A stretch of DNA of 29,589 nucleotides from a virus (Duplodnaviria > Caudoviricetes), in the IMG/VR virus record IMGVR_UViG_3300044616_000248, positions 1 through 29,589 of that record; one strand, given 5' to 3'. Positions 582-24,863 of the stretch are shown here, in pieces. Each line of letters begins with the position of its first letter. Position 1 is the first letter of the stretch. Under the pieces are notes generated by a model, which was not told the DNA's origin, searched no databases, and worked only from the letters and a program-made list of their open reading frames with translations. The position numbers and the translations under genes are program-made.

Positions 582-869
582 ATGGAAAACCAACAAGAAA
601 GAGAATTTACAGCTGAAGAACTAGCTGCTCAAAAAGAACAAATGCTTCAATTCTATACTGAGTCTATTCCATACTTAGAAGCTCAACTTAAGTATGAAGA
701 ATATCTTATGAAGATTGATGAAGCAAGGTACAAGAGAAATACTATTCAGATGCAGTGGGCAATGATGATGCAAGCTCAACAAGAACAAGAATCAGAAGGA
801 TCTGATTTTGATATTGACAATGAACCTAATATTCCTGAACAAGGTAAAAGGAAGCTCAGAAAAGGATAG
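582..869 (+). CDS. hypothetical protein, acidic/helical (MENQQEREFT...)
   Basis: ORF track starts at TTG 546. ATG 582 after an A-rich leader is the more plausible start. Confidence 0.75.
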   Translation: MENQQEREFTAEELAAQKEQMLQFYTESIPYLEAQLKYEEYLMKIDEARYKRNTIQMQWAMMMQAQQEQESEGSDFDIDNEPNIPEQGKRKLRKG

Positions 870-8532: not shown

Positions 8533-8563
8533 TTTAAATATTTGAAGTTTATTTTGTATATTA
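8533..8563 (+). promoter_or_regulatory. putative promoter TTTA-N20-TATATTA upstream of scaffold/MCP
   Basis: Intergenic. Matches the recurrent element with one mismatch in the upstream box. Confidence 0.5.
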
Positions 8564-8586
8564 AATTATAACCAAAACCAACAAAT

Positions 8587-9858
8587 ATGGAAGAAACCAA
8601 CAAAAAACCTGATGATCAGGTCCAAGACTCTACAACGGTAGGTCAGGTAGATGTAAATATTGATGAGCTATTTGGAATGCCTGGTGCTGAAAGTGTAATG
8701 CTTCCATCAGATGATTCAGATAATAATAAACAAATGTCAGTCTTTTCTAAACCAAAAGATGTAGACACAACGTTCCTTGACAAACCTGCAACTAAAGCAG
8801 GTGATGATAGTAGTGATAATAACACTAATGTTTCTACAGCAGAAGTTGATGAGGCAATTGCTCAACTTGATGACATGATCACTCAAGAAGAAGAGACTGG
8901 AAATAAAGGAAGACCAAAGGTTGATAAATCTGGTCTTTCTGAGTTGGCTCAGAAAATGATTGAGGAAGGTACACTTATTCCATTTGATGATGATAAACCA
9001 TTAGAGGAATATACTACCAAAGACTTCCGTGAATTATTTGAAGCTAACTTTCAAGAAAGAGAAAATAAAATTAGACAAGATACTCCAAGAGAGTTCTTTC
9101 AATCTCTTCCAGAAGAACTTCAGATTGCAGCTAAATATGTAGCAGATGGTGGCACAGACCTTAAGTCTTTATTTAGAACTCTTGCTCAAGTTGAAGAAGT
9201 AGTTCAATTAGATCCATCAAATGAATATGATCAAGCAGAGATTGCAAGACAATATCTTTATGCTACTCAATTTGGTACTCCTGAAGAAATTGAATCTGAA
9301 ATTAATGATTGGGCTGATCTAGGTAAACTTGAGCAAAAAGCAAATCAGTTCAAGCCTAAGTTAGATGCAATGCAAGAAGAAATTATTGCAAGACAGTTAG
9401 CAGAGCAAGAAGCAAGAAAAGAACAACAAGCTGCACAGGCAAAAATGTATACGGATAATGTATATAATACTTTGTCAAAAGGAGAACTTGGTGGAGTTAA
9501 GCTTGATAGAAAAGTACAAAGTTTATTGTACTCTGGATTAGTTCAACCTAACTATCCATCCATATCAGGTAAACCTACTAACATGTTAGGTCACTTACTA
9601 GAAAAGTATCAGTTTGTTGAACCAAGACATGATCTTATTGCAGAAGCACTTTGGTTGCTTGCAGATCCAGATGGATATAAAGGTAAGATCAAAGAACAAG
9701 GTTCAAAGAAAACAGTTGAAGATACTGTAAGAAAATTAAAAACAGAAGAAAGTAGAAAGATTAGTTCATCTACTATTTCTGAAGATAATGATACAAGAAG
9801 AACACAAAAACAACAAAGAACTATCTCAAGACCAAATAATTTGTTCAAGAGATTTTAA
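8587..9858 (+). CDS. putative capsid scaffolding/assembly protein (crAss portal-MCP intervening gene)
   Basis: Highly acidic, low-complexity N-terminus and helical/coiled-coil C-terminus, located between portal and MCP. Confidence 0.65.
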   Translation: MEETNKKPDDQVQDSTTVGQVDVNIDELFGMPGAESVMLPSDDSDNNKQMSVFSKPKDVDTTFLDKPATKAGDDSSDNNTNVSTAEVDEAIAQLDDMITQEEETGNKGRPKVDKSGLSELAQKMIEEGTLIPFDDDKPLEEYTTKDFRELFEANFQERENKIRQDTPREFFQSLPEELQIAAKYVADGGTDLKSLFRTLAQVEEVVQLDPSNEYDQAEIARQYLYATQFGTPEEIESEINDWADLGKLEQKANQFKPKLDAMQEEIIARQLAEQEARKEQQAAQAKMYTDNVYNTLSKGELGGVKLDRKVQSLLYSGLVQPNYPSISGKPTNMLGHLLEKYQFVEPRHDLIAEALWLLADPDGYKGKIKEQGSKKTVEDTVRKLKTEESRKISSSTISEDNDTRRTQKQQRTISRPNNLFKRF

Positions 9859-9886: not shown

Positions 9887-11503
9887 ATGGCAACTCCAGT
9901 AATGAACAATGGTATATTCCTTAGGGATACCGCTTACAACGCAAGTTCCCATGTGGATTCTTACCACTTGGTGAACATGCTGAAAGATGCAGAGCCAATG
10001 GACCTTGGTCCAGTGGATCTTTGGGCTATGTCCCAAAAGGTTGAAATGCCTCTTTATCAAATGTCATCATTTGGTGGAAAAAATGTTATCATGGTAGATA
10101 ACGCACGTGGGGAATACAGATGGCAGACTCCAGTCTCTATTGACCTTCCTTACATTGTTGAGGATATTGAACCAGACAATGACTATAAAGGTGTTGATGG
10201 TACTACATTCCGTATCAAACTTAACAAAAGAGAATTTGGACATGGTGATATTATCACTTATGACAAATATAATGGTGTTGAGATGTACATTACACAAGAA
10301 GATATCCTCCCATTAGGTGATGGTTTTATCTATACTGTGCAATTGGTAAACAATGACAACTACAAATACATTGACAACAAGTATTTGGCTAATGGTACTA
10401 AAGTATTCCGTAAAGGTTCTGCAAGAGGTGAGTATGGTGAAAGATTTTCTGACATCATCACTAATGCTGGTTTCCGTGAATTCTACAACTACGTAGGTGG
10501 TGCAGAAGCTCACGTACACTACTCTATCTCTAGCCGTGCTGACTTGATGATCAAAGGTGGTATGAATGCAGATGGTACAGTTCCTGTAACTGAGATCTGG
10601 AGAAACTTTGACAAAACTATGGACCCATCTATTTCTTCTTTGGAAGACATGGTAAAAGTTATGGGTAAAGATGCTGTTAAAAAAGCATTTGACAATGGTA
10701 ACTTGTCACGTACATTCTTGACCAATATGGAAGCTGCTCACTTGAGCAAAATTGCAATTGACATTGAAACATACCTCATGTGGGGTCATGGTGGTAGAGT
10801 ACGTCAGGATGGTCCAGATGATGTTAGATTGTCTGTGGGTCTTTGGAAGCAGTTGGATAACTCATTCAAAAGAGTATACAACAAAAATAACTTCACACTT
10901 GACTTGTTCCGTTCTGAGATCTACAACTTCTTCAATGGTAAGGTTGAGTTCCAAGGTCCAGATCCAAAACGTAGCTTGATTGTACAAACTGGTATGGGTG
11001 GTATGAGAATGGTTAATGAGGCTATCAAACAAGAGGCTATCTCTTCTGGTCTTCTTATCCAGGCTGCTGATATCGGTGCAATCACTGGTAAAGGTATGGA
11101 CTTGAACTTTGGTTTTGCATATACTTCATATGTAATCCCATTCTTGGCAAATGTTAAGTTTGTTCTTAACCCAGCATTTGACAATGTTCATACAAATGAT
11201 ATTGAGAACCCAATCATTGATGGTTTCCCATTATCTTCTTACTCATTCATTATCTTTGACATCACTGATAACACTAATGACAACATCTTCTTATTGAAGT
11301 TGTCTTGGGACAATCAATTGAAATGGTGGTATCAAAATGGTACTATGGACTACATGGGACGTAGCCAAGGCTTCCAGTCTTCTGGTCAGTTCAATGGTTA
11401 CCGTGTAATGATGAGCCAAACAATGCCAGCAATCTGGGTTAAAGACCCAACTAAAGTGTTGAAAATTGTTATGAGAAACCCTGTAACAGGTGGATCATTC
11501 TAA
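9887..11503 (+). CDS. major capsid protein, crAss-like
   Basis: 538 aa in portal-scaffold-MCP synteny. Visibly shifted high-expression codon usage (AAC, TTC, CGT, GAC) and a strong terminator directly after. Confidence 0.88.
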   Translation: MATPVMNNGIFLRDTAYNASSHVDSYHLVNMLKDAEPMDLGPVDLWAMSQKVEMPLYQMSSFGGKNVIMVDNARGEYRWQTPVSIDLPYIVEDIEPDNDYKGVDGTTFRIKLNKREFGHGDIITYDKYNGVEMYITQEDILPLGDGFIYTVQLVNNDNYKYIDNKYLANGTKVFRKGSARGEYGERFSDIITNAGFREFYNYVGGAEAHVHYSISSRADLMIKGGMNADGTVPVTEIWRNFDKTMDPSISSLEDMVKVMGKDAVKKAFDNGNLSRTFLTNMEAAHLSKIAIDIETYLMWGHGGRVRQDGPDDVRLSVGLWKQLDNSFKRVYNKNNFTLDLFRSEIYNFFNGKVEFQGPDPKRSLIVQTGMGGMRMVNEAIKQEAISSGLLIQAADIGAITGKGMDLNFGFAYTSYVIPFLANVKFVLNPAFDNVHTNDIENPIIDGFPLSSYSFIIFDITDNTNDNIFLLKLSWDNQLKWWYQNGTMDYMGRSQGFQSSGQFNGYRVMMSQTMPAIWVKDPTKVLKIVMRNPVTGGSF

Positions 11504-11520: not shown

Positions 11521-11548
11521 AGGGAGGGGGAAACTCCTCCCTTTTTTT
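11521..11548 (+). terminator. Rho-independent terminator after MCP
   Basis: AGGGAGGGG-GAAA-CTCCTCCCT followed by a T-tract. Confidence 0.9.
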
Positions 11549-11586
11549 CTTTATATTTAACCAACAAATAATAAAACCAACAAAAC

Positions 11587-12603
11587 ATGGAAAATTTCAC
11601 AATGGTAGAAACCGGTGGAGGGAGAGTAAAGCAAACAGCTATTGCAGTCCGCCCGTTCTTTGACAACTCAGTCTCTAATATGGGATTGGAAAATTATGGC
11701 TTATCTCTATATGATGGAGTTAAGCACTTTGAACAACTTGCTTGCCTTGAGCAAAATGGAGTTATTAGATATCTTACTGGTCTAAATGAATTTGCACCAG
11801 AGATTAAACTTCTTAAAGCTGAAGACAAAGAAGCAAGAGTAAGAGAAATTAGAACTGCTGTTGCTGAACTTGAAACAGAGTTAGCAGCAAATGTTTTAGA
11901 TATTGAGGATCCTCAGTTCTGGAATAAAGTAAAATTACTTAAGCCTGACAATAAAGAATTCTGGAATAGAATTAATATTGCTTGTGGTAATGAACCTGTA
12001 TTCTTAGATCCTACAGATCCCTATGATAGAATTAAACTATATGCTATTGAAGCTGGTGGTTTTTCTATTGTAGCAAAAAGTTTTGATGATGCAAGATCAA
12101 GAGCTGTTCCGCCTAAGTTTTACTTAGATAAACAAGAGCAGACAGTTATTGCAAGAACTGAATACAAGAAAATGCGTAACAAAGCACTTTCTGAACTTCA
12201 GAAATTATTTGACAAGAACAGTACTAAACTATTCTACGTAGCTAAAGTAGTAGATGGTAACAGTACACAATATAGAAAGTCAACACCTAATGATGTTATG
12301 TATGAGAATATGGACTTGTATATTAATGGAGAAGGAGTTGAAAGCAACAAAGAAAGAGCAGCTAAGTCTTTCCTTGAAGCTGTAAACATGGATATGGAAA
12401 CACTAAAAATTAAATCAATTGTTAGAGATTCCGTATTTTTTAAGTATATTATTAATAAGGCTGATGGTTATATTTATCACGCTAAGACTAATGCATTATT
12501 AGGAAGAAACGTGTCAGATGTAATTGAGTATTTAAAGAGTCCTCTTAATGAGGATGTTCTTACAGATCTCAACAAAGCTTGTGAGAAATTTTGGAACTCT
12601 TAA
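11587..12603 (+). CDS. conserved crAss-like protein following MCP (probable virion/assembly protein)
   Basis: 338-aa ORF in the conserved position after MCP. No catalytic motif recognised. Confidence 0.6.
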   Translation: MENFTMVETGGGRVKQTAIAVRPFFDNSVSNMGLENYGLSLYDGVKHFEQLACLEQNGVIRYLTGLNEFAPEIKLLKAEDKEARVREIRTAVAELETELAANVLDIEDPQFWNKVKLLKPDNKEFWNRINIACGNEPVFLDPTDPYDRIKLYAIEAGGFSIVAKSFDDARSRAVPPKFYLDKQEQTVIARTEYKKMRNKALSELQKLFDKNSTKLFYVAKVVDGNSTQYRKSTPNDVMYENMDLYINGEGVESNKERAAKSFLEAVNMDMETLKIKSIVRDSVFFKYIINKADGYIYHAKTNALLGRNVSDVIEYLKSPLNEDVLTDLNKACEKFWNS

Positions 12604-12614
12604 AACTAAATAAA

Positions 12615-13019
12615 ATGAAAAAATATCAATCTGGTGGTTCTATGCAAGAAACAAAAAAAGCTAGAAAAACTATGGAATCTGGATATAAACCAGCACAAAA
12701 TGCACCAAAAGTAACTATTAGTCCTAGCAGTGGTTCTAGTAAAACACCTGTTAAAAAGGCATCTACTAAAAAAGCAAATCCCCCACGTGGAACAATGGAT
12801 CTAATTAGAGGATCTAAAAAATCAGATTATGAGGGTACTGTTACTCTAGCTGCACAAAAAGGCGGCTCTGTTAAAAAATATAAGACAGGTGGTATGGTAA
12901 ATTCTAATCCAAAAGCTTCAGCATCCAAAGTTGCTAGAGGTAGAGTTGGTGGAATTAGTTCTGCTCCAAAAACTGCTGTACCTAAAGCTAAGTATGGCAT
13001 GTCAATGCGTAAAAAATAA
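12615..13019 (+). CDS. Lys-rich low-complexity protein with xxGG motifs
   Basis: Track start is TTG 12591, but ATG 12615 after AAATAAA is more likely. Contains KYQSGGS, AQKGGSV, KYKTGGMV. Confidence 0.7.
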   Translation: MKKYQSGGSMQETKKARKTMESGYKPAQNAPKVTISPSSGSSKTPVKKASTKKANPPRGTMDLIRGSKKSDYEGTVTLAAQKGGSVKKYKTGGMVNSNPKASASKVARGRVGGISSAPKTAVPKAKYGMSMRKK

Positions 13020-13216
13020 TGGCAACTAAAAAAACAACTAAGAGTAAAGTAAACCAGGCTGGTGTCTACACTAAGCCTGGTATGCGTAAGTCTCTTTTTG
13101 AGAGAATTAAAGCTGGTACTAAAGGTGGAGATCCTGGAGAATGGTCTGCAAGAAAAGCACAACTTTTAGCTAAAGAATATAAGTCTAAAGGTGGTGGTTA
13201 TAAAACTAAGAAGTAA
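13019..13216 (+). CDS. small basic protein, DUF5872-like N-terminal half
   Basis: YTKPGMRK...KGGDPGEWSARKAQLLAKEYKSKGGGY recalled as the DUF5872-type signature. Confidence 0.65.
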   Translation: MATKKTTKSKVNQAGVYTKPGMRKSLFERIKAGTKGGDPGEWSARKAQLLAKEYKSKGGGYKTKK

Positions 13217-13482
13217 TGGGTAAAGATCCTCAACAAAGTCTTAGAGATTGGTCTGCTCAAAAGTGGATGACTTCTGGTACCTATGCTAATAAAAAGAAGG
13301 GTAAGAATAAAGAAGTAAAATCTAAGGGTTCAAAGAGATATTTGCCAGAAGCTGCTTGGGGATCATTATCAGCAGGAGAAAAAGCTGCTACTAATAAAGC
13401 AAAAGCTGCAGGTAACAGTAAAGGAAAACAATTTGTTAAACAACCAAAAAATATTGCGGCAAAGGCTGCAAGACATAGATGA
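13216..13482 (+). CDS. small basic protein, DUF5872-like C-terminal half
   Basis: QQSLRDWSAQKW...RYLPEAAW..LS..EKAATNKAK....KGKQFV. TAATG overlap with the previous ORF. Confidence 0.65.
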   Translation: MGKDPQQSLRDWSAQKWMTSGTYANKKKGKNKEVKSKGSKRYLPEAAWGSLSAGEKAATNKAKAAGNSKGKQFVKQPKNIAAKAARHR

Positions 13483-13982
13483 ATAAACCTGATTTAATAC
13501 TGGATGTTATCTCTAAAGAAGAAGAGCAAGAGTTATTATCCGAATTAAATAAGGAGGACACAGATATAGTATCTAATAAGTATGATAGATCAGGTTTAAT
13601 AAGATATGGAGACTCAGCTGATAGTAGTTATGTAAAATCAGAAGTCATTCCAGAATATTTAATAAACTTATCTAATAAACTTGTAGAACAAAAGATACTA
13701 GATGAGTTACCTGCTTCTATAACAATTAATGTTTATGATGAAGGTTACTCAATTAGTCCGCACATAGATAGAATAGAATATGGACCAGTGGTTACTATAT
13801 TAAGTATTTTATCTGATGCAGAACTTGTATTGTTAAATAATAGTAAAAAGATAAATATTAATTTACCATCAAGATCAGTAATTCAGTTAAAAGGTGAGTA
13901 TAGAAACATTTGGAAACATGCAATACTACCAGTTAAAGCAAAAAGAATATCTATAGTGTTTAGAAAAAAAATAAGTAACTAA
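13479..13982 (+). CDS. AlkB-like 2OG-Fe(II) dioxygenase
   Basis: INVY...ISPHID (HxD), WKHAI (distal His) and RISIVFR (RxxxxxR) motifs. Confidence 0.85.
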   Translation: MNKPDLILDVISKEEEQELLSELNKEDTDIVSNKYDRSGLIRYGDSADSSYVKSEVIPEYLINLSNKLVEQKILDELPASITINVYDEGYSISPHIDRIEYGPVVTILSILSDAELVLLNNSKKININLPSRSVIQLKGEYRNIWKHAILPVKAKRISIVFRKKISN

Positions 13983-14428
13983 TGGCAAAGACAAGAGCAC
14001 AACAAGCAGCAATAGCTATCTCTATGAAGAAGGCTGGTAAGAAACCTAAAATGCAAAATGGTGGAACTCCTTCTATTACTATGAGAAAAGTATCTTCAAA
14101 TGATCCTTATGAAAAAGCAAAAAGAGATTATGAAATGAAGAAACTTACTCTAGATGCTAAGCATAAAATGGATAAATTAAAAGCATCTAAAAAAATGCAA
14201 GATGGTGGTTCTACAAGATCTGTTCAAGGTGCGCCTAAACCAGCTAAATTAACTCCATCACAAACAATGAAAACTGTTAGATGGGATGGTGGTAATACTG
14301 GTTTACAAGTACCTAGTTATATGGTAAATGAAACAGGTAATCCATTACCTCAGTATGAAGCAACGGTAAAAGATAGACTTAAGAAAGCAGGTAAATTATC
14401 TTTTGGTGGTACAATAAAGAAAAAATAA
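13982..14428 (+). CDS. Lys-rich protein with xxGG motifs
   Basis: AQQAAIAISMKKAGKKPK N-terminus. Contains KMQNGG, KMQDGG, LSFGG. Confidence 0.7.
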   Translation: MAKTRAQQAAIAISMKKAGKKPKMQNGGTPSITMRKVSSNDPYEKAKRDYEMKKLTLDAKHKMDKLKASKKMQDGGSTRSVQGAPKPAKLTPSQTMKTVRWDGGNTGLQVPSYMVNETGNPLPQYEATVKDRLKKAGKLSFGGTIKKK

Positions 14429-14429
14429 A

Positions 14430-14711
14430 ATGGCAAAGTCACCAGCATGGCAAAGAAAAGCAGGAAAGAATCCATCAGGAGGTCTTAATGCTAAAGGTGT
14501 GGCTTCTTATAGAAGAGAGAATCCGGGCAGCAAACTTAAAACTGCTGTGACAACTAAACCATCAAAACTTGCTCCAGATAGTAAAGATGCTAAAAGGAGA
14601 AAATCATTTTGTAGCAGAATGTCCGGAATGAAGAAGAAAAACACAAGTGCAAAGACTGCTAATGATCCTAACTCAAGGATTAATAAGTCTTTAAGAAAGT
14701 GGAACTGTTAA
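14430..14711 (+). CDS. small basic phage protein, DUF6321-like
   Basis: AWQRKAGKNPSGGLN.KG..SY...NPGS.L...RRKSFC.RM...DPNSRINKSLRKWNC pattern, recalled from aquatic phages. Confidence 0.7.
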   Translation: MAKSPAWQRKAGKNPSGGLNAKGVASYRRENPGSKLKTAVTTKPSKLAPDSKDAKRRKSFCSRMSGMKKKNTSAKTANDPNSRINKSLRKWNC

Positions 14712-14723
14712 AATTTATATATT

Positions 14724-15146
14724 ATGAAAAAAATGTGTGCTAAGTGTGGCGGCTCTGTGAAAAAAATGGCTAAAGGTGGTTCAATGAAAACTACTGTAGG
14801 TTCTAAGTCTGCTAAATCTTTTATTGCTGGTATTCCAAATAGTGGTCCAACAGGTCCTAACTATCAAGGTGTAGACACTATGAAAAAAGGTGGTATGGTT
14901 AAAAAGAAATATGCTAAGGGTGGTTCATCATTTGGCATGCTTTCAGTAAAAGCTGGTATTGATAAAAATCCTAATCCTACTGCAGCAGATAGAATTGCTG
15001 GTGCTAAAAAGAAAGCTAAGTTTGGTGCATCTGTTCCAGTACAACATTCTCCAGCTCCAGGTAGAGTTAGATCTTCATCTGGTGTAGGTACTGTTCCTGT
15101 GGGCGCACGCAAGAAAATGGGTGGTTCTATTAGAAAAAAGAAATAA
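14724..15146 (+). CDS. Lys-rich protein with multiple xxGG motifs
   Basis: Contains AKCGGSV, MAKGGSM, MKKGGMV, YAKGGS, KKMGGSI. Confidence 0.7.
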   Translation: MKKMCAKCGGSVKKMAKGGSMKTTVGSKSAKSFIAGIPNSGPTGPNYQGVDTMKKGGMVKKKYAKGGSSFGMLSVKAGIDKNPNPTAADRIAGAKKKAKFGASVPVQHSPAPGRVRSSSGVGTVPVGARKKMGGSIRKKK

Positions 15147-15148
15147 TC

Positions 15149-15439
15149 ATGAAAGCACCAGGTAAATTAAAACCAATGATTGGTCCTGTACCTAGTACAG
15201 TTAAAAAACCTTTAAAGGCTGGTATGTATGCTAAACCTGTGCCTAAGAAAATGGCAGAAGGTGGTAACTGGATTCAAGGTGCAATCAAAAAACCAGGAGC
15301 TCTTAGAGAACAACTTGGTGTTAAAAAAGGTGAAAAGATTCCTAAAGCTAAATTAGCTGCAGCGGCTAAAAAAGGTGGCAAGCTTGGTCAAAGAGCAAGA
15401 CTTGCTATTACTCTTGGTAAAATGAATAAAAAGAAATAA
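15149..15439 (+). CDS. small basic phage protein (WIQGAIKKPGALR type)
   Basis: KMAEGG followed by NWIQGAIKKPGALREQLG...GQRARLA. Confidence 0.7.
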   Translation: MKAPGKLKPMIGPVPSTVKKPLKAGMYAKPVPKKMAEGGNWIQGAIKKPGALREQLGVKKGEKIPKAKLAAAAKKGGKLGQRARLAITLGKMNKKK

Positions 15440-15440
15440 A

Positions 15441-16202
15441 ATGAAAAAGACAACTAAAACTAAAATGGGTCCTCTAGGCACCCCACTTGGAAATCCACTT
15501 GGATATTTTAATTCTCAAAAAGCAAAAAGATCTGCTCCGACAAAACAAAATTTAAGAAAAGCTCAAGATGGCAGAGCTGTAGGACCAATGGAAAAAGGTA
15601 CTGTAGAATATTTAGATACTAAATATCCAGGCACAGCATTGAAATTTCAAGGACCATATTCTAATGATTATATGGATAATCAAAGAGAAAAGGTAGCTCA
15701 AACATATGATGCTTTTTCATGGGGAACTGCTGCGGATTTAGAGGATACTTTAAGAAAAAATGAAGAGAATCAAATAAGAAGTTGGAGAGATGACTTTAAT
15801 TCAGGTACTGGCCTTAGTAAAGCAGATGCCTATCGTAAAGGAGGTTCTGTTAAAAAGAAACCTATTATAAAAAAAGGAGGTTCTGTAAAAAAAATGCAAA
15901 AGGGTGGTCCTACATATAGTGAAATTAGTAATACACGTGGAGTTGGTATTGTTAAAAATACATCAACTATAGGTGGTGGAAAAAAAGAAAAAGAAAAAAG
16001 TTATAATTTAGGATATGCTGGTCCTAGTAGTGCCAAAGTTACAGTAAGAAAGTATGATAATCAAGGTGATCTTAAAAATACAAGATCAAGGTCTACCACA
16101 CCTGAAAAAGTAGATAAATATGTTGCTAAAAATGAAAGTAAAATTTCATATAAAAAAGGCGGTACTACTAGAAAAGTAACTTCTATTAAAAGAAAAAAAT
16201 AA
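15441..16202 (+). CDS. Lys-rich protein with multiple xxGG motifs
   Basis: Contains YRKGGSV, IKKGGSV, MQKGGP, YKKGGT. Confidence 0.7.
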   Translation: MKKTTKTKMGPLGTPLGNPLGYFNSQKAKRSAPTKQNLRKAQDGRAVGPMEKGTVEYLDTKYPGTALKFQGPYSNDYMDNQREKVAQTYDAFSWGTAADLEDTLRKNEENQIRSWRDDFNSGTGLSKADAYRKGGSVKKKPIIKKGGSVKKMQKGGPTYSEISNTRGVGIVKNTSTIGGGKKEKEKSYNLGYAGPSSAKVTVRKYDNQGDLKNTRSRSTTPEKVDKYVAKNESKISYKKGGTTRKVTSIKRKK

Positions 16203-16906: not shown

Positions 16907-17425
16907 ATGGAAACAAAAACAAGACTATTAAAAAGAAATCCTGAGCCTGCAAAAACACTTAGCAGACCTCAGCCTGTTGTTACACAACCTAAAGAAGAAC
17001 CTGCTAAACCACAACCTACTCCGGATGCTGGAGTTGGCGGAAGCTCATTGGATACTATGACTGCAGCATGTGCAACAGAGATGATGAATGCAGCTACTAG
17101 TTTTCATAGACTTCACTTAAAAGTTAAAGGTGACGGTTCTTATGCAGCACATAAAGCTCTTGGAGATTTTTATGACGGCCTTCATGGTCACGCAGATACT
17201 TTAGTAGAAGGATACCAAGGCGTAGCAGAGAAACTTTTAACTTACAAAGACATGCCCATTAGAACACTAGATACAACTGCAGATGCTGTAGGATATCTTA
17301 GAGATCTATACAATACAATTAACAAACTCCAGGGCATGATGCCGTACTCTGAGATTGTAAATAACCTAGATTTAGTTAAGGATTCAATTAACTCAACTAA
17401 GTATAAATTACTTTTCTTAAAATAA
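16907..17425 (+). CDS. ferritin/Dps-like protein (DUF5856-like) with Pro-rich N-terminal extension
   Basis: FHRLHL...SYAAHKALGDFYDGL..HADTLVEGYQG four-helix-bundle signature, ending KYKLLFLK. Confidence 0.75.
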   Translation: METKTRLLKRNPEPAKTLSRPQPVVTQPKEEPAKPQPTPDAGVGGSSLDTMTAACATEMMNAATSFHRLHLKVKGDGSYAAHKALGDFYDGLHGHADTLVEGYQGVAEKLLTYKDMPIRTLDTTADAVGYLRDLYNTINKLQGMMPYSEIVNNLDLVKDSINSTKYKLLFLK

Positions 17426-19818: not shown

Positions 19819-19837
19819 AAATTTAAAACCAACAAAT

Positions 19838-21921: not shown

Positions 21922-21935
21922 TAATTAGTATATTA
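21905..21935 (+). promoter_or_regulatory. putative promoter CTTG-N20-TATATTA
   Basis: Exact spacing match to the other copies. Ends 5 nt before ATG 21941. Confidence 0.55.
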
Positions 21936-23617: not shown

Positions 23618-24163
23618 ATGTCAATTAATAAATGTAAAAATTGTGGATGTGAAGATGGCTTAGTTACTCTTCCACCATGTCCTACACCAGGAGGTTGCCC
23701 AGATCCAGAACCATGTTCTGAAGTATTTGATGCACAGTGTATAGTATATACAGGTGCAGACATTGACTGTGGTGCTGATACTGTAGTACCTACTGATACT
23801 AATGTTGCTACAGCTTTAAATGATGTTGTAACATATTTCTGTCAAGAACTTAATCAACAGAAATTAAGATACATAAAAGAAATCAATACAAACTTTGATT
23901 TAACTACACTTACAATTACTCAAGCAGAATTAGCAGCATGTGGTATAACACCATCTTATTGTAGTTTAAGTGGGTCAGAGTATTCAGATTTTGTTATTAG
24001 TCTTTGGTATTTATCAGCTGGTGTTTGGAAACTTATTCAACCATATGAATCTCCAACAGAATTCTATGGTGTATCTGTAAATGATACAACAGGTTTAATT
24101 ACAATTGCAATCACTAGGCCTTCTGGTCCAACAACTAGATTAAGAGCAGTTTTAATATTCTAA
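23618..24163 (+). CDS. Cys-rich structural protein sharing its N-terminal module with the fibre gene
   Basis: PCSEVFDAQCIVYTGADIDC aligns by eye with PCSPISSNCVIWQGPDIPC of 21941. Confidence 0.6.
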   Translation: MSINKCKNCGCEDGLVTLPPCPTPGGCPDPEPCSEVFDAQCIVYTGADIDCGADTVVPTDTNVATALNDVVTYFCQELNQQKLRYIKEINTNFDLTTLTITQAELAACGITPSYCSLSGSEYSDFVISLWYLSAGVWKLIQPYESPTEFYGVSVNDTTGLITIAITRPSGPTTRLRAVLIF

Positions 24164-24166
24164 GAA

Positions 24167-24230
24167 GTTACAGTTTGTTGGTTTCTGTGACAACAAGGCA
24201 AAGCCCCTGCACTCGCGGGGGTTTTGTTTT
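24167..24230 (+). ncRNA. candidate 3'-UTR small RNA (seed-loop hairpin plus terminator)
   Basis: GTTACAG[TTTGTTGGTTT]CTGTGAC hairpin. The loop is complementary to AAACCAACAAA boxes at several start codons. Confidence 0.5.
24195..24230 (+). terminator. Rho-independent terminator
   Basis: CAAAGCCCCTGC-ACTC-GCGGGGGTTTTG stem (with G-U pairs) ending in T-tracts. Confidence 0.8.
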
Positions 24231-24239
24231 ATCACTATA

Positions 24240-24270
24240 TTTGCTAAAGTGAGTTATTTTTAGTATATTA
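24240..24270 (+). promoter_or_regulatory. putative promoter TTTG-N20-TATATTA
   Basis: Directly after the terminator and 11 nt before ATG 24282. Overlaps a TATATTTG (24236-24243). Confidence 0.6.
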
Positions 24271-24281
24271 ATCTATATAGT

Positions 24282-24863
24282 ATGAAAGATTTTAAAACCC
24301 CAGATCTTAAAGCTCCACGCTTTAGACCAAAGGTTCATAATATAGCAAACAAAAAGTTCTTTGATAGTTTTAGAAAGAAGTATCCAAAGTATAAAGACTT
24401 AAAGGATTCAGAGCTTAGAAAAATAATTAAATATTTTAATAAGCAGGCATATCATCTTGCGGTAGAAAACAGAGATGGTATACAACTGCCTGAGTCAGTA
24501 GGTTGGATATTTATTGGGACATGCCAAACAAGTGTAAAGAAAAATATTGATTTTGCAAAGTCAACAAAGTATGGAGTGACAGTAACAAATAAAAATTGGG
24601 AAACAGATGGTAAACTAGCTAAAATATTTTATACAAATTATGCTATTAAGCATAAGATGAAAAATAAAGAGTATTGGGGATTTACAGCTTGTAGAGATTT
24701 TAAAAGATTAGTATCTAAAACTTATCCTGAAAACTGGCCAATATATATAGTAGTTGACCCCCATCAAAAAATAAAACTAGACTATCAAAAAACTTATTAT
24801 AAAGACCTGTTACAAAAAAGAGAACAGGAGGCATTAAAAAATTATAATGACTTTGATCTATGA
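24282..24863 (+). CDS. IHF/HU-like protein of the crAss-like tail block
   Basis: LRKIIKYFNK...ENRDGIQLPESVGWIFIG pattern, basic, and in the position of crAss IHF-like genes before the tail tube genes. Confidence 0.55.
   Translation: MKDFKTPDLKAPRFRPKVHNIANKKFFDSFRKKYPKYKDLKDSELRKIIKYFNKQAYHLAVENRDGIQLPESVGWIFIGTCQTSVKKNIDFAKSTKYGVTVTNKNWETDGKLAKIFYTNYAIKHKMKNKEYWGFTACRDFKRLVSKTYPENWPIYIVVDPHQKIKLDYQKTYYKDLLQKREQEALKNYNDFDL

Follow-up and report, generated by a model that had tools for sequence, protein, structure and literature searches.

Introduction

Small RNAs that act by short pairing provide the closest described parallels to the element reported here. The c4 RNA controls the ant antirepressor message of temperate E. 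coli phages, and GcvB is a chromosomal enterobacterial sRNA that has its own promoter and depends on Hfq. In 3′-UTR-derived sRNAs such as CpxQ, DapZ, and MicL, a seed and a terminator lie at the end of an mRNA, and release by processing or an internal promoter is the defining feature. Scaffold control in phage P22 is achieved by protein autoregulation. The c4 antisense RNA of phages P1 and P7 is listed at 77 nt in a table of PMC12197685, and the phage sRNAs described in the sections of that source drawn on here come mostly from temperate phages or act on host genes, with crAss-like and Bacteroides phages going unmentioned there. Initiation in Flavobacterium is favored by adenines at −3, −6, −12, and −13 and by low pairing, and pairing near the start lowers translation (PMC6847099, in the parts cited). 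Homologs of Hfq and ProQ are not obvious in Bacteroides or Bacteroidetes according to the cited part of PMC7366714.

Here we describe a hairpin RNA element from a crAss-like phage whose loop is complementary to boxes at the start codons of virion genes. The element is a real and deeply conserved phage RNA structure by comparative evidence, and the comparative case that it pairs with the leaders of three assembly genes is good. Our literature search, which covered titles and the openings of abstracts and few subscription papers, returned no description of it.

The carrier phage and its gene content

The window, meaning the whole stretch of DNA analyzed, is an entire virus record of 29.6 kb with 34% G+C and its main genes on the + strand. 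PHROG and Pfam profile matches (including PF23898, PF25702, and PF24228) identified a terminase, a portal, a Crass-type major capsid protein, and two crAss ring proteins, and these genes stand in the conserved order. Gene content and order identify the window as the virion-gene module of a crAss-like, uncultured phage. Because the terminase is just 22–25% identical to its 30 listed GenBank phage matches, all of them gut crAss-like, Azobacteroides, or Flavobacterium phages, we use the term crAss-like without a family assignment. We infer a host within the Bacteroidota.

Several labels used below were given by position. The putative scaffold gene, 8587, lies between the portal and major capsid genes, and "tail fiber" refers to 21941 and 23618; neither 8587 nor 23618 had a PHROG or Pfam match, and 21941 had only a Pfam match at 0.056, far below the cut-off. 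The variable module ending with gene 23618 likely encodes tail fibers. Gene 24282, downstream of the RNA, likely encodes an HU/IHF-like protein, judging from a weak profile match (E 0.0019, among 19 proteins) to a protein so annotated in NC_055871.1; its predicted structure model had a pLDDT of 91. No relatives of 11587 or 24282 were found in GenBank phages at E 1e-5, and 11587 had no match among PDB sequences.

A TATATTA motif, kept in relatives, lies ahead of four operon starts (at 8554, 17450, 21926, and 24261) and is likely a late promoter element; it sits only a few bases before the ATG of 21941, which suggests a very short leader there. A sigma-70 promoter scan of the window gave results at chance level. 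Between 11587 and the structural gene 16206, positions 12591–16202 hold some nine short ORFs whose products are very rich in Lys and, in several cases, have a GG motif; three of this run match PHROGs of unknown function, and 13479 is a 2OG-Fe(II) oxygenase. Also within the virion module, the product of 16907–17425 has PHROG matches to Dps-like starvation-inducible and DNA-binding families and a match to Pfam DUF5856.

A hairpin with an exposed loop follows the last gene of the variable module

Hairpin 1, its loop, and hairpin 2 (Table 1) form both the minimum free energy and the centroid fold of the region, with z scores of −4.8 to −5.3 and none of 200 shuffles equally stable. The stem and 11-nt loop recognized in the sequence-only reading were thus placed correctly. 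Most of the fold energy comes from hairpin 2 (stem 1 alone, −5.9 kcal/mol), and opening the loop costs 0.05 kcal/mol. Stem 1 begins three bases after the stop codon of 23618, so that hairpin 1 lies on the mRNA strand between a stop codon and a terminator-like hairpin, a 3′-UTR placement if the terminator is real. The second hairpin, which that reading called a terminator, folds with a U-rich tail, though a simple terminator scan of the window did not include 24195–24230 in its list; we therefore infer a terminator from the fold and the tail. The hairpin/terminator element is single-copy.

An Rfam search returned no family at the gathering score: the sole match was BSnc120 at 23.1 bits against a cut-off of 114 (E 0.43), T-box gave no match at E up to 1, and the c4 and GcvB models were also without a match. 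An H-type pseudoknot between loop and linker was considered and rejected by reasoning, as there is no space for a connecting loop and the linker is not conserved. RNA runs contained only short assembled contigs of relatives, three of which begin at the hairpin; such contigs carry no strand, end, or level information.

Table 1. Features of the window discussed in the text, in order of position.
Feature	Position	Strand	Remarks
Coding-region box in gene 582	587..597	+	One mismatch; codons Asn-Gln-Gln; possible weaker target
Box	8575..8585	+	Exact; before ATG 8587 (putative scaffold)
Second box, first codons of 8587	8592..8604	+	8594–8604 exact; 13 nt complementary to loop and 3′ arm
Major capsid gene	9887..11503	+	PF23898 and phrog_11589; without box (internal control)
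Two boxes before ATG 11587	11558..11584	+	11558–11568 one mismatch, 11574–11584 exact
Gene 11587	ATG 11587	+	Gene next after capsid terminator
Box	19826..19836	+	Exact; before ATG 19838
Gene 19838	ATG 19838	+	63-aa Cys-rich protein
Gene 23618	23618..24163	+	181 aa, no family; last gene of variable module; RNA in its 3′ UTR
Hairpin 1	24167..24191	+	7-bp stem 24167–24173/24185–24191, one G-U pair; displays loop
Loop UUUGUUGGUUU, predicted seed	24174..24184	+	11 nt; core UGUUGGU nearly invariant
Hairpin 2 and U-rich tail	24195..24230	+	Candidate intrinsic terminator and RNA 3′ end
Gene 24282, downstream of RNA	24282..24863	+	Likely HU/IHF-like; promoter-like motif at 24261; anchor for finding relatives

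The loop persists while the sequence around it changes

A search of viral contigs that used only the terminator pattern, and took no account of the loop, gave 119 loci from 46 of the 64 parts of the collection; TTGTTGG lay just upstream of the terminator in 109 of them. Among the 70 distinct contexts parsed by the 7-bp pattern, the stem held one G-U pair in 52, two in 18, and a mismatch in none, while 32 unparsed loci comprised unrelated matches, cut ends, and deviating stems. The G-U pairs place the fold on the + strand, and on the minus strand the parsed stems barely fold. When 71 sequences were aligned, pairing extended to 96.3% of cells, and both sides had changed in 7 of the 19 pairs, a count that exceeded 500/500 shuffles and all slid controls and that is inflated by related sequences. 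In hairpin 2, 5/12 pairs had changed on both sides. A model built on this alignment found one strong copy in each of 11 records.

Searches anchored on the 24282 protein extended this to more distant phages. A loose rule recovered the hairpin in 86 of 87 distinct loci, 74 of which have the exact 10-mer. In the last distant set it was detected in 61 of 63, and the two misses were visible by eye; the two sets have some contigs in common. It was kept down to 34.7% anchor-protein identity, and the distant phages have stems and terminators of unrelated sequence but retain the loop. The loop was conserved in relatives that keep the boxes described below, as the earlier proposal predicts. The upstream gene ranges from 82 to 1012 codons among relatives, and the stem begins 1–10 nt past its stop in 60/69 loci. 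In phages that have an inserted gene ahead of the anchor gene, the hairpin still lies 1.3–2.0 kb upstream, at the end of the variable module. No conserved promoter of the RNA's own was visible upstream in relatives. From this comparison, the element is a selected + strand RNA structure in a 3′ UTR.

Some variation was also observed. One stem class (11/70) leaves the loop partly paired, with a mean unpaired value of 0.58, and G118 has a C in the loop, with the target genes missing from its record. Joint loss of hairpin and boxes was considered for G121 and rejected, the hairpin being present with an altered loop end. Many distant relatives carry a gene of ~430 codons with a His/Trp-rich terminal motif between the hairpin and the HU/IHF-like gene, 0–1.5 kb ahead of the latter. 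The terminator-like hairpin has a C(ACNN)G loop (24210–24215 in the window) that is kept in the near clade and was partly built into the search pattern; the terminator loops of distant phages differ, including TTCTA- and GAAA-type loops, and the window's other terminators have other loops. In bacterial genomes (21/64 parts scanned), 119 of 120 pattern matches were due to chance, and the sole full element came from an assembly also holding an 81% ortholog of phage 11587, likely a binned phage contig or a hint of the host.

Boxes complementary to the loop mark three virion-gene leaders

Matches to the loop complement with at most one mismatch occur ten times in the window, against 1.89 expected (0/100 shuffles). 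Five cluster around the ATGs of 8587, 11587, and 19838, at most 30 bases ahead of the start or a few codons into the gene; one lies in the first codons of 582, three are at other coding positions, and the loop itself is the only copy in antisense. The sequence-only reading had located the boxes at the three ATGs and the 13-nt second match correctly, had begun the 10/11 copy upstream of 11587 at 11559 rather than at 11558, and had lacked the one-mismatch coding-region copies at 9807, 12341, and 14556. Its suggestion that boxes are enriched at starts agrees with the occurrence of AAACCAACA in 3 of the 37 called leaders against 0.02 expected. When accessibility was included in the loop pairing, the starts of 19838, 8587, 11587, and 582 took ranks 1–4 of 35 start regions (−11.7 to −9.6 kcal/mol; next, −7.1 kcal/mol), and fold prediction left the target leaders in the window almost unstructured.

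The enrichment extends to relatives. We counted AACCAA within 24 bases of the ATG in all phage loci fetched for the box count, with gene starts from a simple ORF caller, some of which are wrong. The motif preceded the ATG in 83/85 scaffold, 95/95 gene 11587, and 98/101 gene 19838 leaders, against 0/68 capsid leaders and 0/76, 0/92, 0/109, 0/112, 0/44, 0/51, 0/48, 1/94, and 0/10 leaders of neighboring genes. Repeated boxes were common, with two or more copies in 57/95 leaders of gene 11587 and repeats in 48/85 scaffold and 20/101 gene 19838 leaders, and AACCAA also occurred in the first 24 coding bases of 41/85 scaffold orthologs. Across the window and ten whole or partial records, the box was consistent in these three families only. 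Thus, of the four target genes first proposed, three are conserved, whereas the 582 box is a coding one: the motif is in the first codons of 8/10 orthologs and in the leader of 1/10, and it may in part reflect the Asn-Gln-Gln codons.

Within the box, positions 1–7 (AAACCAA) are almost fixed, and position 8 (232 C, 28 A, and 21 T among 281 leaders) varies though the loop G that faces it is almost fixed. The first box C lies at −11 to −8 in 233/281 leaders. Other phage leaders are also enriched for AAACCAA (28/1088 against 5.3 expected). A Bacteroidota control, drawn from 400 kb around ribosomal-protein operons in five genomes, gave 3/421 leaders against 2.7 expected and hence no enrichment.

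Outside the virion module, boxes were found in 4/8 leaders of an opposite-strand 113-aa family (G010, G011, G012, and G016) and in 3/7 leaders of a 97-aa family (G003, G009, and G016), which are possible lineage-specific additional targets. Distant relatives have another leader motif, TAACCC, before the capsid gene and the 17490 ortholog, possibly a second leader code.

Possible joint change of RNA and leaders in a few distant lineages

Joint change of RNA and boxes is mostly invisible because the core is frozen. Changes at the loop edge were unmatched, as boxes are normal in G076, G105, and G114, whose loops have an A in the 5′ portion; loop-length classes failed to predict box tails, and a test of own against foreign RNA 3′ segments in 197 pairs was null (mean rank 0.47). 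The loops of G130, G131, and G133 have drifted at their 3′ ends, and a second element, complementary to the 3′ arm and linker of the RNA, lies 5′ of the box in 7/9 target leaders of these genomes. This element was present in 7/22 target leaders of the ten genomes with an RCTGAC RNA and in 0/180 of the other 99 genomes; under an equal rule, it occurred in 0/40 control leaders of the ten and in 8/364 of the other genomes. Seven RCTGAC genomes are without it. The signal is a post hoc finding and represents two lineages at most, because gene 11587 is 81% alike in G130 and G131 and that of G133 is 54–57% alike to both. Predicted duplexes of the extended leaders reach −22 to −29 kcal/mol with their own RNA, against −16 to −21 kcal/mol with the window RNA. 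Since the second element and the box are collinear with the RNA, a duplex that formed at the loop first would extend by opening stem 1.

In G132, the most distant of the genomes, the loop together with its 5′ flank matches that genome's own scaffold leader perfectly over 11 nt (−24.2 kcal/mol), and the 11587 leader of G132 holds an 11-nt stretch, read by eye, that is complementary to the altered 3′ end of the loop with one G-U. The extra complementarity in these four distant genomes points to direct RNA–RNA pairing. Signs of loop–target covariation, a check put forward with the original proposal, appear in these four genomes and in phi17:2 (below), but not at the loop edges or in the global 197-pair test.

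A similar hairpin occurs in a cultured Cellulophaga phage

The cultured phage phi17:2 of Cellulophaga baltica, whose capsid is ~26% identical to that of the window over part of its length, has a hairpin at the site equivalent to that in the window, between its annotated tail-fiber and ring genes at about 51330–51430 of NC_021798.1. The 12-nt loop consists of U's flanking GG, and a terminator comes next; this is the only such match in 50 kb. Among 34 starts, the best target of the loop is the gene after the capsid gene, and the tail-fiber and scaffold-position genes come next. The post-capsid gene has no detectable homology to 11587 and is equivalent by position only. Its box has A where the window has C, a match to its loop that is weakened by A-at-position-8 boxes also being present where the loop has G, and phi17:2 is a single lineage. 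The ring protein of phi4:1 is identical to that of phi17:2. We found no comparable hairpin in the fetched stretches of Fpv3, csAssE-Sib, Lbo-JY46, and cr106_1, and no further phi17:2 relatives in viral or metagenome contigs. The closest capsid (28.6%) belongs to PP438436.1, a phage deposited with a cyanobacterial host, which also has orthologs of 11587 and 24282; its leaders are A-rich and without SD sequences, and the host label may merit checking.

Proposed mechanism and alternatives

Comparison among relatives shows a fold selected on the + strand, a loop kept amid change around it, and boxes kept in exactly three leaders. We consider it probable, with some reserve, that the 3′-end phage RNA pairs in trans with these leaders and represses their translation. 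The circuit proposed from sequence alone is thus supported in part, its discrete ~65-nt RNA and its coupling of tail to head assembly standing as predictions. Late expression from the promoter-like motif at 21926 would produce the likely tail-fiber transcript, at whose 3′ end the hairpin would show its conserved U/G-rich loop, and the RNA would accumulate late, either as the mRNA 3′ end itself or as a processed fragment guarded by the terminator. The loop would pair with the AAACCAA(C) boxes over the starts of the putative scaffold gene, 11587, and 19838 and lower their translation, with loop-first pairing nucleating a duplex that would extend by opening the weak stem. Given the common position of the first box C, the duplex would mask adenines −3, −6, −12, and −13, within the stretch from about −13 to −3 whose adenines Bacteroidota ribosomes are proposed to need.

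On 8587 and 11587 the RNA would work mostly in trans, since terminator-like hairpins after the capsid gene (at 11521) and after gene 17490 (at ~19210) separate these two genes from it. Since the box-free capsid leader shares the predicted transcript, the RNA would set the scaffold-to-capsid ratio, and scaffold and accessory protein would go down relative to capsid protein during tail-gene expression. The universal seed is only 7 bp (−5.4 kcal/mol, against −11.4 kcal/mol for 11 bp), and this weakness, together with the reported absence of Hfq and ProQ in Bacteroides, suggests that repeated boxes or a helper protein supply affinity. A bolder reading, somewhat less likely than not, is that a lytic crAss-like clade, and probably also phi17:2 and phi4:1, use an RNA-only assembly checkpoint. 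The 3′ end of the tail-fiber message would then be a riboregulator with several targets, setting the scaffold-to-capsid ratio by means of a leader code private to the phage where host ribosomes do not read Shine-Dalgarno (SD) sequences.

The RNA might pair with the boxes and activate instead, through protection of 5′ ends or ribosome delivery that stands in for the unused anti-SD pairing. All of the pairing evidence serves activation equally, the first box C occupies an SD-like position, and SD sequences are absent from Bacteroidetes mRNAs (PMC6847099, as cited). We nevertheless regard it as unlikely: a duplex would mask the adenines favorable to initiation, and translation falls when the start region is paired (same source); the almost unstructured target leaders leave nothing to unfold; and the capsid gene, for which the highest output is needed, lacks a box in every leader counted.

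Control could also run in reverse, with box leaders acting as triggers or sponges that open hairpin 1 and alter the stability or termination of the tail-fiber message, so that head transcripts would tune tail expression. Extended duplexes do use the 3′ arm, so stem 1 must open; the stem lies close behind the stop codon in most loci, and many leaders have two or more boxes. A sponge, however, would not require boxes to be confined to start-codon regions, the predicted duplexes mostly end before the terminator core, and the next gene has a promoter-like motif of its own, which leaves reverse control a quite unlikely reading.

Still more improbable is a site recognized by a protein, whether as duplex DNA in both orientations or as a pair of unrelated motifs in single-stranded RNA, with loop and boxes never pairing. 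The clade-wide frozen core on both sides and the unmirrored changes at the loop edge would fit such a site, but the G-U patterns mark an RNA fold on the + strand, for which a DNA site would have no use, the conserved boxes are all on the sense strand with the loop as sole antisense copy, and lineage-specific complementary extensions in several genes of one genome are hard to obtain without pairing. We give very little weight to a chance complementarity between an ordinary A-rich Bacteroidota initiation signal and an mRNA-stabilizing 3′ hairpin: the box does place adenines at favored positions (PMC6847099, as cited), and AAACCAA is enriched in other phage leaders too. Against chance, the motif is not enriched in host-type leaders, those of ribosomal-protein operons included, and the loop survives complete replacement of its stem. 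A T-box antiterminator senses the ACCA 3′ end of uncharged tRNA, and the invariant core does hold UGGU directly upstream of a terminator-like hairpin, but control of read-through in this style is barely credible here, with no Rfam T-box match, neither an antiterminator fold nor a specifier domain in the predicted fold, and the boxes left unexplained.

Comparison with known systems

If repression by pairing is correct, virion morphogenesis in an abundant aquatic phage group would gain a further, post-transcriptional level of control, and the case would show how translation can be regulated where neither SD sequences nor Hfq are available. Because a look-alike exists in phi17:2, a phage of Cellulophaga baltica, the idea is open to bench tests, and loop/box pairs could become small translational switches for Bacteroidota.

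Like c4 of P1 and P7, the element would be a small phage-encoded trans-acting RNA that controls phage mRNA by short pairing, though it lies in a 3′ UTR, its predicted targets are three late assembly genes of a crAss-like phage, and it has no c4 match in Rfam. It resembles CpxQ, DapZ, and MicL in having a seed and a terminator-like hairpin at an mRNA end, with release only predicted here. The likeness to GcvB acting on ACA translation enhancers is that a G/U-rich seed faces C/A-rich elements upstream of several start codons (PMC3879156, in the part cited); here, however, the predicted seed is the loop of a hairpin, the phage encodes both the RNA and its targets, and there is no sequence or Rfam relationship. 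GibS of Bacteroides thetaiotaomicron shows that start-region pairing can repress targets in Bacteroidetes but, as described in the cited part of PMC7366714, is an intergenic sRNA of the host whose 5′ seed is long and unstructured, unlike a 7–11-nt loop seed at an mRNA 3′ end. SviR, from the Vibrio cholerae phage satellite PLE, is a trans-acting sRNA that lowers translation of phage mRNAs, including that of a putative structural gene (10.1101/2022.04.08.487710, in the part cited). In that case the RNA of a satellite targets its helper phage, whereas here a phage would regulate its own assembly genes.
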